The notes beneath the pieces are model-generated. The model saw only the letters and a list, made by a program, of their open reading frames with translations. It made no database searches and was not told the DNA's origin. Below, piece by piece: positions 7,128 to 8,485 of a DNA stretch of 10,426 nucleotides (position 1 is the first letter of the stretch; the number at the start of each line of letters is the position of its first letter). The translations under genes were made by a program, and so were the position numbers. This DNA is from a bacterium (GTDB taxonomy: Bacteria; SAR324; NAC60-12): NCBI GenBank assembly GCA_965233585.1, contig CBDDTI010000399.1:1-10426 (forward strand), given 5' to 3'.

Positions 7128-7886
7128 TTATTGATTTAGACTTTTACGACATCTGTACAACGACATAACACTGACGCCTAAAATGTGAGCCATATTTTTG
7201 ACGCTTAAATATCGCAATTTGGATTCTTTTAAAAAGGCATAAGCGCATGCAGCTAATAAAGTTCTTGGAGCAAAAGAACTATTTTCATTTTTTTTTAATA
7301 TTTGTTCAATGGACGTCATTTCTTGATAATTTAACTGCAGCGGCTGTAAAAAATATTCTTTCATATCTTTCGCTTTTATGTAATTGTCTAATTTATTCAT
7401 GTCAGTCAAATCCCGTCTGTATAATTTCATCCAACGCCACACTATCTTTGGATTAACGCCGACTTCTTGACACAAATGACTTATCGGGCGGGGAATTTTT
7501 TCTTTTATCAAACCTTGATATAACGTCATAACCACCAGTCCTTTAGCATCTATTTTAATTTTTCCACCTTTTCGATGATGCCACGCTACTATATCTGACC
7601 ATAGATTAAAAATAACATTTGTAACATCATTATTTAAATGTAATTTATTGCATAAAATTTTTAAAATATTTTTTTCTTTCTCTAAATGCCGGTTTTTTTG
7701 TTTAATTTCTTCATCAAATGTTTTTATTTTGTCCAATTTTGTTTCCAAATTTGATTTTGTTAAATTATAGCAATATATTTTATCAATAACTAATCCACAC
7801 TCGGTACACACCACGTCCCCTTGCCTGGTGTCTTCTACTGGATATTCATGATTGCATATTTTAGTATAATCTACTTTCTCGTGCAT
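7128..7886 (-). CDS. TFIIB-like transcription initiation factor (252 aa)
   Basis: Zn ribbon CNHEYPVEDTRQGDVVCTECGLV (compare TFIIB CPNH..VEDYRAGDMICPECGLV). Two cyclin-fold repeats: LCNKLHL..LYQGLIKEKIPRPISHLCQEVGV and FLQPLQL..PRTLLAACAY..SVKNMAHILGVSVMSL. First ATG is at 7886 (the track starts at a TTG). Confidence 0.9.
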   Translation of the reverse strand: MHEKVDYTKICNHEYPVEDTRQGDVVCTECGLVIDKIYCYNLTKSNLETKLDKIKTFDEEIKQKNRHLEKEKNILKILCNKLHLNNDVTNVIFNLWSDIVAWHHRKGGKIKIDAKGLVVMTLYQGLIKEKIPRPISHLCQEVGVNPKIVWRWMKLYRRDLTDMNKLDNYIKAKDMKEYFLQPLQLNYQEMTSIEQILKKNENSSFAPRTLLAACAYAFLKESKLRYLSVKNMAHILGVSVMSLYRCRKSLNQ

Positions 7887-7942
7887 AATTTTGATGTTTA
7901 TTGTATAAATATTAAAACTCAACTAAATAAACATTATTCACA

Positions 7943-8485
7943 TCATTCGATTTTATATTTTTTTAATAATTTAATAATAATTTTTATTCCTTGTTTAGCA
8001 TCTTCTTCGCTGGAGGCTCCAATTATAACTATTTTTCCCGACGAAAATATTAAAGCTGAACACTTTTTTATTTTTAAAAATACGCCTGGGAATTTTTCTG
8101 GGTCGTATCTCTTATGAATGATTTCAAAGTCTTCATTCAATTTTAAATGGTTGTAAAATCTCAATAATTTGATCTCTTCTTTTGATTGATACAAACAAGT
8201 CATGTTTTCTACTTTAAATATTTTAACAACAAATTCGCTATTTATAATAAGTTTTAGTTCGTCTAATGCTTTCGCAATGTGTTCTGTAGAGGGAATTTTT
8301 GTAATGTTTACGTGAAAATGTCGATTTTGTTTTGTTTTGGTAAATATAATAAAGGAATATTTTTTTCTTATTACAACAAAATTATTATAACGTTTTATTG
8401 TATTATCGGTATTAAAAGAAATTTCGTCACTGTTAATAAGATGAACTTTACAACTAATTTTTACATTGCTGACCAGCACTTCCAT
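7943..8485 (-). CDS. TATA-binding-protein-like factor (180 aa, core domain only)
   Basis: The C-terminal repeat FKVENM..YDPEKFPGVFLK..SALIFSSGKIVIIGASSEE is clearly TBP-type. The N-terminal repeat is diverged (VSNVKISC..NNFVVIR..FIIF..VNITK). First ATG is at 8485 (the track starts at a TTG). Confidence 0.9.
   Translation of the reverse strand: MEVLVSNVKISCKVHLINSDEISFNTDNTIKRYNNFVVIRKKYSFIIFTKTKQNRHFHVNITKIPSTEHIAKALDELKLIINSEFVVKIFKVENMTCLYQSKEEIKLLRFYNHLKLNEDFEIIHKRYDPEKFPGVFLKIKKCSALIFSSGKIVIIGASSEEDAKQGIKIIIKLLKKYKIE

Follow-up and report, generated by a model that had tools for sequence, protein, structure and literature searches.

The window analysed here is the whole stretch of 10,426 nucleotides, and the recognisable part of the element that it carries amounts to approximately 5.7 kb. 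The following features were found:

3882-5621, minus strand: 579-aa ORF, called "penton" in the preliminary description, without a database match
5628-6716, minus strand: integrase gene with a retroviral-type rve core and a C-terminal chromodomain
6717-7118, minus strand: 133-aa ORF with an N-terminal QRGSG motif and a basic tail
7128-7886, minus strand: TFIIB-like gene, 252 aa (ATG at 7886, stop at 7128-7130)
7887-7942, minus strand: AT-rich spacer of 56 nt from the TBP-like stop to the TFIIB-like ATG, read from the sequence
7943-8485, minus strand: TBP-like gene, 180 aa (ATG at 8485, stop at 7943-7945)
8486-8491: 6-nt junction of the divergent TBP-like and capsid-like ATGs
8492-9511, plus strand: capsid-like gene, probably for a double jelly-roll major capsid protein, truncated

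The TBP-like and TFIIB-like genes are two intact, co-oriented ORFs, and the distances given for them in the preliminary description proved exact on re-reading: 6 nt from the TBP-like ATG to the divergent plus-strand ATG of the capsid-like gene at 8492, 56 nt between the two genes, and 9 nt from the TFIIB-like stop to the QRGxG ORF (133 aa), whose ATG is at 7118. Further downstream, the integrase ATG follows the QRGxG stop directly (0 nt) and the 579-aa ORF starts 6 nt after the integrase stop, and the five minus-strand genes are tightly packed, with spacers of 0-56 nt. Because both proteins can be aligned over their full length with relatives that are equally long, their genes can be regarded as intronless, as had been proposed. 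The claim of a shared AT-rich composition was correct in part: both genes are AT-rich, yet they are the most AT-rich genes of the element and differ in this from their neighbours (25.8% GC for the TBP-like and 30.8% for the TFIIB-like gene vs 31.8-42.8% in the other four).

As modelled, the TBP-like ORF is a genuine member of the TBP superfamily with a complete two-repeat saddle. The Pfam family TBP (PF00352) matched it at 7.5e-19 over residues 108-195 only, i.e. the C-terminal repeat was detected and the N-terminal repeat was missed. A sequence search against solved structures returned 35 TBP sequences, of which an archaeal TBP was the best (3.5e-19). The AlphaFold2 model (pLDDT 91.8, pTM 0.82) was compared with the PDB using Foldseek, and all matches at E<=1e-3 were TBP entries (44/44), with alignments of 189-200 columns that comprised whole TBP cores at TM 0.62-0.76. 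The two-repeat saddle and the TBP-only fold matches bear out the name under which the gene was first described. Identity to the solved cellular TBPs was 19-25%.

The C-terminal repeat is canonical, and the N-terminal repeat is divergent yet strongly conserved in the family. In a TBP alignment of 26 rows the first hairpin of the N-terminal repeat, where TFIIA binds in cellular TBP, was shorter than in archaeal TBPs. TBP contacts the minor groove through paired phenylalanines and central asparagines. Residues N7, N94, F48, F132 and F147 were invariant in 26/26 rows and aligned with archaeal TBPs, and presumably correspond to the DNA-contacting residues. The fourth phenylalanine, F36, adjoins an alignment gap, hence its equivalence is presumed rather than read off. 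The motif of the C-terminal hairpin (Y127, E130, F132, P133) was also invariant in all 26 rows, and conservation across the family was 0.76-0.80 in the strands and 0.62-0.72 in the helices.

The TFIIB-like ORF is, judged by its sequence, a genuine member of the TFIIB superfamily. It consists of a zinc ribbon (residues ~9-36), a variable linker (~37-68) and two cyclin-fold repeats (~69-165 and ~172-252), each of which ends in a strongly conserved helix-turn-helix-like stretch. The Pfam family Zn_Ribbon_TF (PF08271) matched the ORF at 7e-7 (29.1 bits vs a cut-off of 29) and was present on 31 of the 32 family rows, PF00382 on 7/32. Human TFIIB was found at 1.4e-4 when the single ORF was used to search the sequences of solved structures, and with a full-sequence E of 1.3e-7, ribbon included, when the family profile was used; residues 63-247 of the profile aligned in the same register with human TFIIB 106-285. 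The ribbon agrees with that of human TFIIB at 13/18 positions of the aligned stretch, and H13, C27 and C30 were at least 90% conserved. The first two zinc ligands are spaced C-x-H; the spacing of their human counterparts is C-x2-H. For a structure model of moderate to weak quality (pLDDT 73, pTM 0.44, TM-scores 0.29-0.38), the best 33 matches listed by Foldseek were TFIIB, archaeal TFB or Brf, and the first cyclin came at rank 34. The proposed identity was thus upheld by the zinc ribbon and by two cyclin folds in TFIIB register, the model being the weaker part of the evidence.

Conservation in the TFIIB-like family was 0.69 in the ribbon and 0.65 and 0.69 in the cyclin folds. The linker is the least conserved part of the protein: no conserved reader/linker was found in the family, with a majority fraction of 0.38 and many insertions and deletions at residues 37-68, and pLDDT was below 50 at residues 35-65. 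In cellular TFIIB the stretch between ribbon and core forms the reader and linker, which act in start-site choice and DNA opening. With a linker that is unconserved and of low pLDDT, the protein may not support start-site selection or DNA opening in the normal way.

The capsid-like gene matches residues 1-340 of relatives of ~447 aa (tblastn of P0088, P0089 and P0097), which share its start methionine; the DNA beyond residue 340 is unrelated and GC-richer. Its protein has 91 relatives, some of them named 'F54H12.2-like' at ~30% identity, a name for which a literature search found nothing. One of 31 relatives (P0164) reached the Pfam family PF21738 (DJR-like_dom) at 1e-6, 28.6 bits vs a cut-off of 27, and sequence and profile searches with the family against solved structures gave chance-level matches only. 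By this indirect chain, the gene probably encodes a double jelly-roll major capsid protein. The integrase was matched by Pfam rve (PF00665) at 4.8e-9 (36.8 bits vs a cut-off of 32.6) and by Chromo at 8.3e-5, which is under the cut-off of that family; the combination of rve core and chromodomain suggests that the element lives in the nucleus and integrates into chromatin. The 133-aa QRGSG ORF had no match in Pfam or PHROGs, and the 579-aa ORF none in Pfam, PDB sequences or PHROGs. The label "penton" for the latter is unsupported, although not disproved; comparing its profile with that of the capsid family yielded a probability of 0.2%. Accordingly, the position assigned to the pair, between the capsid gene and the QRGxG, integrase and penton genes, stands as to coordinates, but the name of the last gene found no support in any search.

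Within the 10.4-kb window, no ORF or Pfam match indicated a protein-primed family B DNA polymerase. The window also lacked a packaging ATPase, a maturation protease, terminal inverted repeats (the inverted repeats present were short and local), an RNA polymerase gene, Rfam families and tRNAs. The copy in the window is truncated and probably dead, and intact relatives may therefore carry the protein-primed polymerase; since the capsid gene is truncated here, the locus may be inactive altogether. The best explanation is a virus-like element that occurs in many copies, encodes an integrase and a capsid protein and belongs with the Polinton/Maverick elements or the mid-size dsDNA viruses. The assignment as Polinton-type was only partly substantiated: it agrees with the rve integrase and the likely capsid gene, whereas the polymerase, ATPase, protease and terminal repeats are absent from the window.

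Both genes belong to multi-copy families, with 36 TBP-like clusters (down to 50% identity) and 47 TFIIB-like clusters (down to 38%). Full-length clusters numbered 21 and 31, with lowest pairwise identities of 46% and 35%, respectively. Contigs were shared between the TBP-like and TFIIB-like families in 4 cases, between the TBP-like and capsid families in 4 and between the TFIIB-like and capsid families in 6, against a chance expectation of ~0.15-0.19; sharing was judged from the identical size of the clusters' longest contig. The family pairs that share contigs include members with 42-58% identity to the proteins of the window. A pattern search of genome contigs with the TFIIB alignment yielded 31 pattern matches, of which 0 were confirmed as related loci. 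For an open frame at 50% identity the estimated neutral survival was p ~1e-4 (TBP-like) and ~1e-7 (TFIIB-like). By this estimate, which is an analytic one of open-frame survival, the frames of both genes have stayed open beyond what neutral decay survives, i.e. they have been maintained over the long term.

The profile of the TFIIB-like family retrieved 171 clusters of compact TFIIB-like proteins. As 148 of the best 150 profile matches were shorter than 300 aa, they are not canonical cellular TFIIBs. Taken together, identities of at most 25% to cellular TBPs and compact, non-cellular TFIIB relatives show that the two genes are not recent host copies. The view that the pair are integral genes of the element, and neither flanking host genes nor retrocopies, is therefore sustained by the multi-copy families, the shared contigs and the low identity to cellular proteins.

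To our knowledge, the transcription of Polinton/Maverick-type elements and mid-size DNA viruses is little understood, and host Pol II with host factors is assumed. An element-borne TBP and TFIIB pair suggests that these small DNA viruses steer host transcription to their own genes, and it is plausible that the pair acts as a viral adaptor between promoter and Pol II. In the envisaged mechanism, the TBP-like saddle would bind and bend an AT-rich promoter element, and the core of the TFIIB-like protein would dock on the C-terminal hairpin of the saddle, its conserved helix-turn-helix stretches contacting the flanking DNA. The zinc ribbon would then recruit host RNA polymerase II, and transcription of the element would start at its own promoters, either without host TFIID and TFIIB or in competition with them. 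The binding of the two proteins to each other, their DNA specificity, the use of Pol II and the set of genes driven are putative. Whether the pair, as integral genes, form a virus-specific initiation module in this sense is in our judgement an evenly balanced proposition. The more general idea that small, polymerase-less, integrating, capsid-encoding eukaryotic viruses possess an orthogonal adaptor of two proteins that links promoter and Pol II, with a remodelled yet tightly conserved N-terminal half of TBP, a compact TFIIB without a conserved reader and a promoter grammar of its own, is more doubtful and is put forward tentatively. If it is true, the 171 compact TFIIB-like clusters would mean that the strategy is widespread in mid-size DNA viruses and mobile elements and no peculiarity of a single element.

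One of the closest parallels is found in the beta- and gamma-herpesviruses, for which PMC4893493, PMC7498053 and PMC4922670 describe a late-gene pre-initiation complex with the viral TBP mimic BcRF1/ORF24/UL87. There, too, a nuclear DNA virus without a polymerase of its own uses a TBP-fold protein to direct host Pol II to late promoters. The herpesvirus mimic is large, contacts Pol II itself and acts with five other viral factors, none of which is known to be a TFIIB homologue, whereas the TBP of the element is minimal (180 aa) and partnered with a TFIIB-fold protein. A model of BcRF1 matched the fold of the TBP-like model weakly (rank 45, E 5.9e-4, TM 0.40). If the adaptor role is true, no smaller viral set for redirecting Pol II would be known (two proteins vs six in herpesviruses), and the pair would be a natural orthogonal minimal initiation system. 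It would also give experiments direct access to how Polinton-type elements are expressed and silenced, and it could represent a link in the evolutionary traffic of initiation factors among cells, giant viruses and small DNA viruses.

The pair might instead serve a polymerase other than host Pol II, either that of a co-infecting giant virus, in a virophage-like manner, or one located elsewhere in the intact element. We consider this unlikely. Compact genomes of cytoplasmic viruses are similarly AT-rich with short spacers, and the strongly AT-rich genes with their 0-56 nt spacers would suit such a life style. The window holds only part of the element, and as only ~5.7 kb is recognisable, a polymerase elsewhere in intact copies is possible. 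Moreover, the nearest language-model clusters were virus-labelled TBP and TFIIB with Nucleocytoviricota as the commonest taxon, although such neighbours are leads without alignments. Giant viruses (Nucleocytoviricota) have TBP and TFIIB homologues, with TFIIB as a giant-virus marker, and mirusviruses have a TBP (PMC10132985). They resemble the element in encoding general initiation factors, and the TBP-like model had fold matches to 47 viral TBP-like models; they differ from it in having multi-subunit RNA polymerases of their own and genomes of hundreds of kb. The similarity to these viral models is low, and the giant-virus TBP models were structurally no closer than the cellular ones (TM 0.4-0.72 and 5-20% identity vs 0.62-0.76 and 19-25%). 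The TFIIB-like ribbon is closest to human TFIIB, and both the chromodomain integrase and the large number of genomic copies suggest a nuclear setting.

It is also improbable that the pair is an interference device, which would occupy promoters or titrate host factors or Pol II without productive initiation, for shut-off, self-silencing or competition with rival elements. The unconserved reader/linker, disordered in the model, and the shortened first hairpin of the N-terminal TBP repeat would fit such a function. However, the presumed DNA-contacting residues are conserved across a deep family together with the ribbon and the two cyclin folds, whereas a decoy needs one surface, and the two genes remain linked. 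The notion that the pair are mere passengers, i.e. copies taken from the host or chance neighbours that do nothing for the element, could appeal to the fact that TBP and TFIIB are genes of cells, to the decayed locus with its truncated capsid gene and to the higher AT content of the pair relative to its neighbours, but it is close to refuted by the 19-25% identity to solved cellular TBPs, the short TFIIB-profile matches, the multi-copy families on linked contigs and the frames that stay open at 35-50% identity.

The novelty claimed for the pair has to be narrowed, since a TBP-like gene has already been figured in mid-size DNA viruses: Starrett et al. 2021 (PMC8502044) list one in their Figure 5 legend, for mid-size eukaryotic linear dsDNA (MELD) viruses with adintovirus-like PolB. 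There, too, a TBP homologue is carried by a small DNA virus or Polinton relative for which no RNA polymerase is known. The legend names TBP only, and neither it nor section 3.4 discusses a function; TFIIB is absent from the text and from one supplement, which mentions neither TBP nor TFIIB. In the literature searched no description of a TBP and TFIIB pair in Polinton-like elements was found, and to this extent the claim holds. Mobile elements that lack a polymerase and carry their own general initiation factor are known from archaea. A passage of PMC6563490 states that all thaumarchaeal integrative-conjugative elements encode TFIIB homologues, and in a phage collection the sole match to the TBP-like protein was the TBP of Haloarcula virus HJTV-2 (26.6% identity over 74% of the query, E 8e-6), the TFIIB-like protein having no match there. 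In contrast to the pair described here, these are single factors in archaeal hosts and in unrelated element types.

Since the divergent ATGs of the TBP-like and capsid-like genes are separated by 6 nt, the promoter of each must lie within the opposite gene or at a distant leader. No robust promoter motif was shared by the six upstream regions, in which two TATAAA boxes were noticed post hoc. A TATAAA on the minus strand at 7957 precedes the TFIIB-like ATG by 71 nt, still inside the TBP-like gene at its 3' end, and together with the 56-nt spacer this region is a candidate promoter for the TFIIB-like gene. At the other end of the minus-strand genes, AATAAA signals are present past the stop of the 579-aa ORF, at 3871 and 3827 on the same strand.

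The TBP-like and TFIIB-like ORFs are a real, conserved pair in a family of virus-like elements. They are located in an AT-rich block (approximately 1531 to 9511 in the window), which is bordered by GC-richer flanks (48% and 43%) and contains five closely packed minus-strand ORFs between 3882 and 8485:

7943-8485, minus strand: TBP-like ORF (180 aa)
7128-7886, minus strand: TFIIB-like ORF (252 aa)
6717-7118, minus strand: 133-aa ORF with a QRGSG motif at its start
5628-6716, minus strand: integrase
3882-5621, minus strand: 579-aa ORF

These ORFs are separated by spacers of 56, 9, 0 and 6 nt, and the capsid-like plus-strand ORF starts at 8492, leaving a gap of 6 nt to the ATG of the TBP-like ORF. 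The distances between ORFs quoted in the preliminary description all proved exact when read from the sequence.

Pfam model PF00352 recognized only the C-terminal repeat of the TBP-like protein (7.5e-19, residues 108-195). In a phmmer search of solved structures the protein matched 35 TBP sequences, with archaeal TBPs scoring best (3.5e-19), yeast TBP at 2e-14 and human TBP at about 1e-11. The NCBIfam archaeal TBP models aligned in register with residues 30-177, scoring 59 bits where the cut-off is 181. An AlphaFold2 model, computed from 21 full-length family members aligned with four archaeal-type TBPs, had a pLDDT of 91.8 and a pTM of 0.82. When this model was compared with the PDB by Foldseek, all 44 matches with E≤1e-3 were TBP entries (189-200 columns aligned, TM 0.62-0.76, 19-25% identity), and the entries ranked after them were unrelated (TM ≤0.31). 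Because the matches over this length were exclusively to TBPs, the protein as modelled is a complete saddle. In its N-terminal repeat the first short helix is missing, and the first hairpin is shorter than in archaeal TBPs. Within the family, conservation is higher in this non-canonical half (residues 1-82) than in the canonical C-terminal half (0.76 versus 0.68), and higher in strands than in helices. The high conservation of the N-terminal half suggests that this side of the saddle has a function specific to the family. Residues N7, N94, F48, F132 and F147, and the hairpin motif Y127/E130/F132/P133, were invariant in all 26 rows of the TBP alignment, archaeal rows included; presumably they correspond, in cellular TBP, to the asparagines that contact the minor groove, the phenylalanines that intercalate and the hairpin that contacts TFIIB.

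For the TFIIB-like protein the Pfam zinc ribbon was barely at threshold (29.1 versus 29 bits), in 31 of 32 family rows, and the Pfam cyclin repeat was detected in only seven of the 32. The family profile matched human TFIIB (1.3e-7) in two stretches, namely the ribbon and residues 63-247 aligned with 106-285. In the sequence search, a stretch of the ribbon agreed with human TFIIB at 13 of 18 positions. The AlphaFold2 model was of moderate quality (pLDDT 73, pTM 0.44) and consisted of the ribbon, a low-confidence segment (35-65) and ten helices forming two cyclin-like halves. Foldseek returned 39 matches with E≤1e-3, of which the best 33 listed were pre-initiation-complex entries, isolated TFIIB cores (5wh1_B, 1c9b_A, 1vol_A), and archaeal TFB (1d3u_B, 1ais_B) or Brf chains; cyclins entered the ranking at rank 34. 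In 5iy6_M and 7o4i_M the matched chain was TFIIB according to sequence searches. The TM-scores were low (0.29-0.38), since the model does not define how the domains are placed relative to one another. Conservation within the family was 0.69 for the ribbon and 0.65 and 0.69 for the cyclin folds; the linker was poorly conserved (0.38), with numerous insertions and deletions, and we take this segment to be at the position of the reader and linker of cellular TFIIB. Each cyclin half ends in a nearly invariant stretch with weak matches to many helix-turn-helix families, which would fit DNA contacts flanking the TBP site on both sides. The assignment of the two ORFs to the TBP and TFIIB families had been made from the sequence alone, and it was borne out by Pfam, phmmer and AlphaFold2 with Foldseek for the former, and by the Pfam ribbon, the family profile and Foldseek for the latter.

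Identity of the TBP-like protein to any solved cellular TBP did not exceed 25%. The TFIIB-like profile, searched against 1.84 billion representatives, gave 618 matches at E≤1e-3, 171 at E≤1e-10 and 15 at E≤1e-30. Among the best 150 matches 148 were under 300 aa, the length of cellular TFIIB and TFB being about 300-350 aa. The 171 clusters at E≤1e-10 are compact, mostly 200-290 aa, with weak or no Pfam matches. A Pfam ribbon or TFIIB repeat was found at E≤1e-3 in 28 of 45 scanned proteins, which were picked from near-full-length members of the best 150. The short lengths and these Pfam matches therefore indicate that compact TFIIB-like proteins form a halo around the family. The low identity to solved cellular TBPs and the compact TFIIB kin indicate that neither gene was recently copied from a host. 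In a language-model atlas the nearest neighbours of both proteins were TBP and TFIIB clusters. Few members of these clusters are labelled, and the labels are mostly viral, Nucleocytoviricota being the commonest; we regard these placements as no more than leads. In fold comparisons the TBP models of giant viruses were no nearer to the TBP-like protein than cellular TBPs.

Both genes belong to multi-copy families. The TBP-like search yielded 40 matches, comprising four archaeal-type TBPs and 36 family members (50-99% identity; 21 full length, 15 fragments), and the TFIIB-like search yielded 47 (38-96% identity; 31 with at least 224 aa, 16 fragments). Linkage was assessed by comparing the length of the longest contig per cluster across the TBP-like, TFIIB-like and capsid-like families, using for the last 65 of 91 matches (at least 36% coverage, distant ones left out). 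Identical lengths were found for four TBP-like/TFIIB-like cluster pairs (6759, 8156, 10894, 14469), four TBP-like/capsid-like pairs (5974, 8156, 11868, 15782) and six TFIIB-like/capsid-like pairs (5966, 6860, 8156, 8298, 11734, 21519), with chance expectations of 0.15, 0.14 and 0.19, respectively, when lengths were jittered by 10%. Judged by these matching lengths, the data suggest that the three families have contigs in common. On this indirect evidence the linkage is old, since several of the clusters concerned share only 42-58% identity with the proteins of the window. The lowest pairwise identity in the aligned full-length sets was 46% (TBP-like) and 35% (TFIIB-like). Since 5.5% and 6.7% of single-base changes create a stop in these AT-rich genes, the probability of an open frame after neutral drift to 50% identity is about 1e-4 and 1e-7, respectively. 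The sequences come from a database of predicted ORFs only and are thus biased to intact frames; despite this bias the divergent full-length members cannot be neutral debris. The view that the pair are integral genes of the element was upheld by the multi-copy families, the linked contigs and the frames kept open, and the pair is probably functional.

The most economical reading of sequences and models is that the two proteins would form a virus-specific initiation module. The TBP-like saddle would sit on an AT-rich promoter element, the TFIIB-like core on the C-terminal hairpin of the saddle and the flanking DNA, and the ribbon on host Pol II. That the linker is unconserved and the N-terminal TBP repeat re-modelled suggests that such a module is not a plain duplicate of host factors; TFIIA or TFIID may be bypassed, or the module may be incapable of working with partners from the host. 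Alternatively, the pair could serve another polymerase or have an interference role, and a further rival is that they are passenger genes. The interpretation in the preliminary description as a whole is plausible and partly supported, with Pol II redirection as a putative function.

As the divergent TBP-like and capsid-like ATGs are only 6 nt apart, each of the two genes must have its promoter inside the coding DNA of the other, or else in a spliced leader. From 3500 to 8700 the minus strand has only five TATA[AT]A sites, and two of these fall inside the 3' end of the preceding gene: at 7957, 71 nt upstream of the TFIIB-like ATG, and at 5681, 60 nt upstream of the 579-aa ATG. Within 100 nt past the stop and outside the neighbour's coding sequence, AATAAA was found only for the last of the five minus-strand genes (3871 and 3827, minus strand), which could indicate a single long transcription unit; one AATAAA is also present at 7902, in the 56-nt TBP-TFIIB spacer. 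These patterns were picked out post hoc and their statistics are weak. The TBP-like and TFIIB-like genes are the most AT-rich of the element (25.8% and 30.8% GC; GC3 22% and 28%), the remaining four having 31.8-42.8% GC. The extra AT-richness of 7128-8485 could stem from a different origin, or from this DNA also serving as upstream region of the divergent capsid-like gene.

In the open full-text literature no report was found of a TBP and TFIIB pair in Polinton, Maverick, adintovirus or polinton-like elements. The single relevant precedent comes from the figure legends of Starrett et al. 2021 (PMC8502044, and preprint), which list a TBP-like gene, with no TFIIB, for MELD viruses with adintovirus-like PolB. 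Passages in other papers use TFIIB as a giant-virus marker, and mention TBP for mirusvirus-like elements and TFIIB homologues in archaeal conjugative elements; judging by title and abstract, the rest deal with giant viruses. The claimed novelty is moderate to high for the pair, and does not extend to a viral TBP as such.

The integrase contains an rve core that passes the Pfam threshold, and its chromodomain match is weak. Searches with the capsid-like ORF found 91 relatives, about 447 aa long; in a lizard and a mussel record, distant relatives (about 30% identity) bear the name 'uncharacterized protein F54H12.2-like', and one relative reaches Pfam DJR-like_dom, weakly supporting a putative double jelly-roll capsid protein. 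The 579-aa ORF had no match in any search, and no polymerase, ATPase, protease or terminal repeat was found in the window. The 'Polinton-type' label was thus backed only in part, by the integrase and the probable capsid gene and not by these other hallmarks, and a safe description would be Polinton/Maverick-like or mid-size dsDNA virus-like. The capsid-like gene matches its relatives only up to residue 340 (position 9511), and this copy appears to be a truncated fragment embedded among other repeats. The break at 9511 marks an insertion into the element or, alternatively, a fragment's end; beyond it (9511-10426) the DNA is GC-richer (43%), and its short ORFs belong to no known family.

Where the GC-rich flank gives way to the AT-rich block there is a 53-nt tandem array (1265-1508, 4.6 copies, 96% matches), with an inverted 21-nt arm at 1507-1527 and 21-nt repeats at 1101-1144 and 1244-1299. 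The left flank (295-1179) contains a 76-aa frame with a weak match to Myb/SANT-like domain 5 (8.7e-4, below cut-off) and a 188-aa ORF without family; these probably represent another repeat or a host gene outside the element. Region 1531-3881 is AT-rich (34.9% GC) and has no ORF matching a family; it could be either a terminal region or element DNA that has decayed. It includes two segments of approximately 130 nt (2536-2671 and 2844-2973) that repeat each other at a distance of about 305 nt, and a 136-aa ORF (3161-3571, plus strand) where the GC content rises locally.
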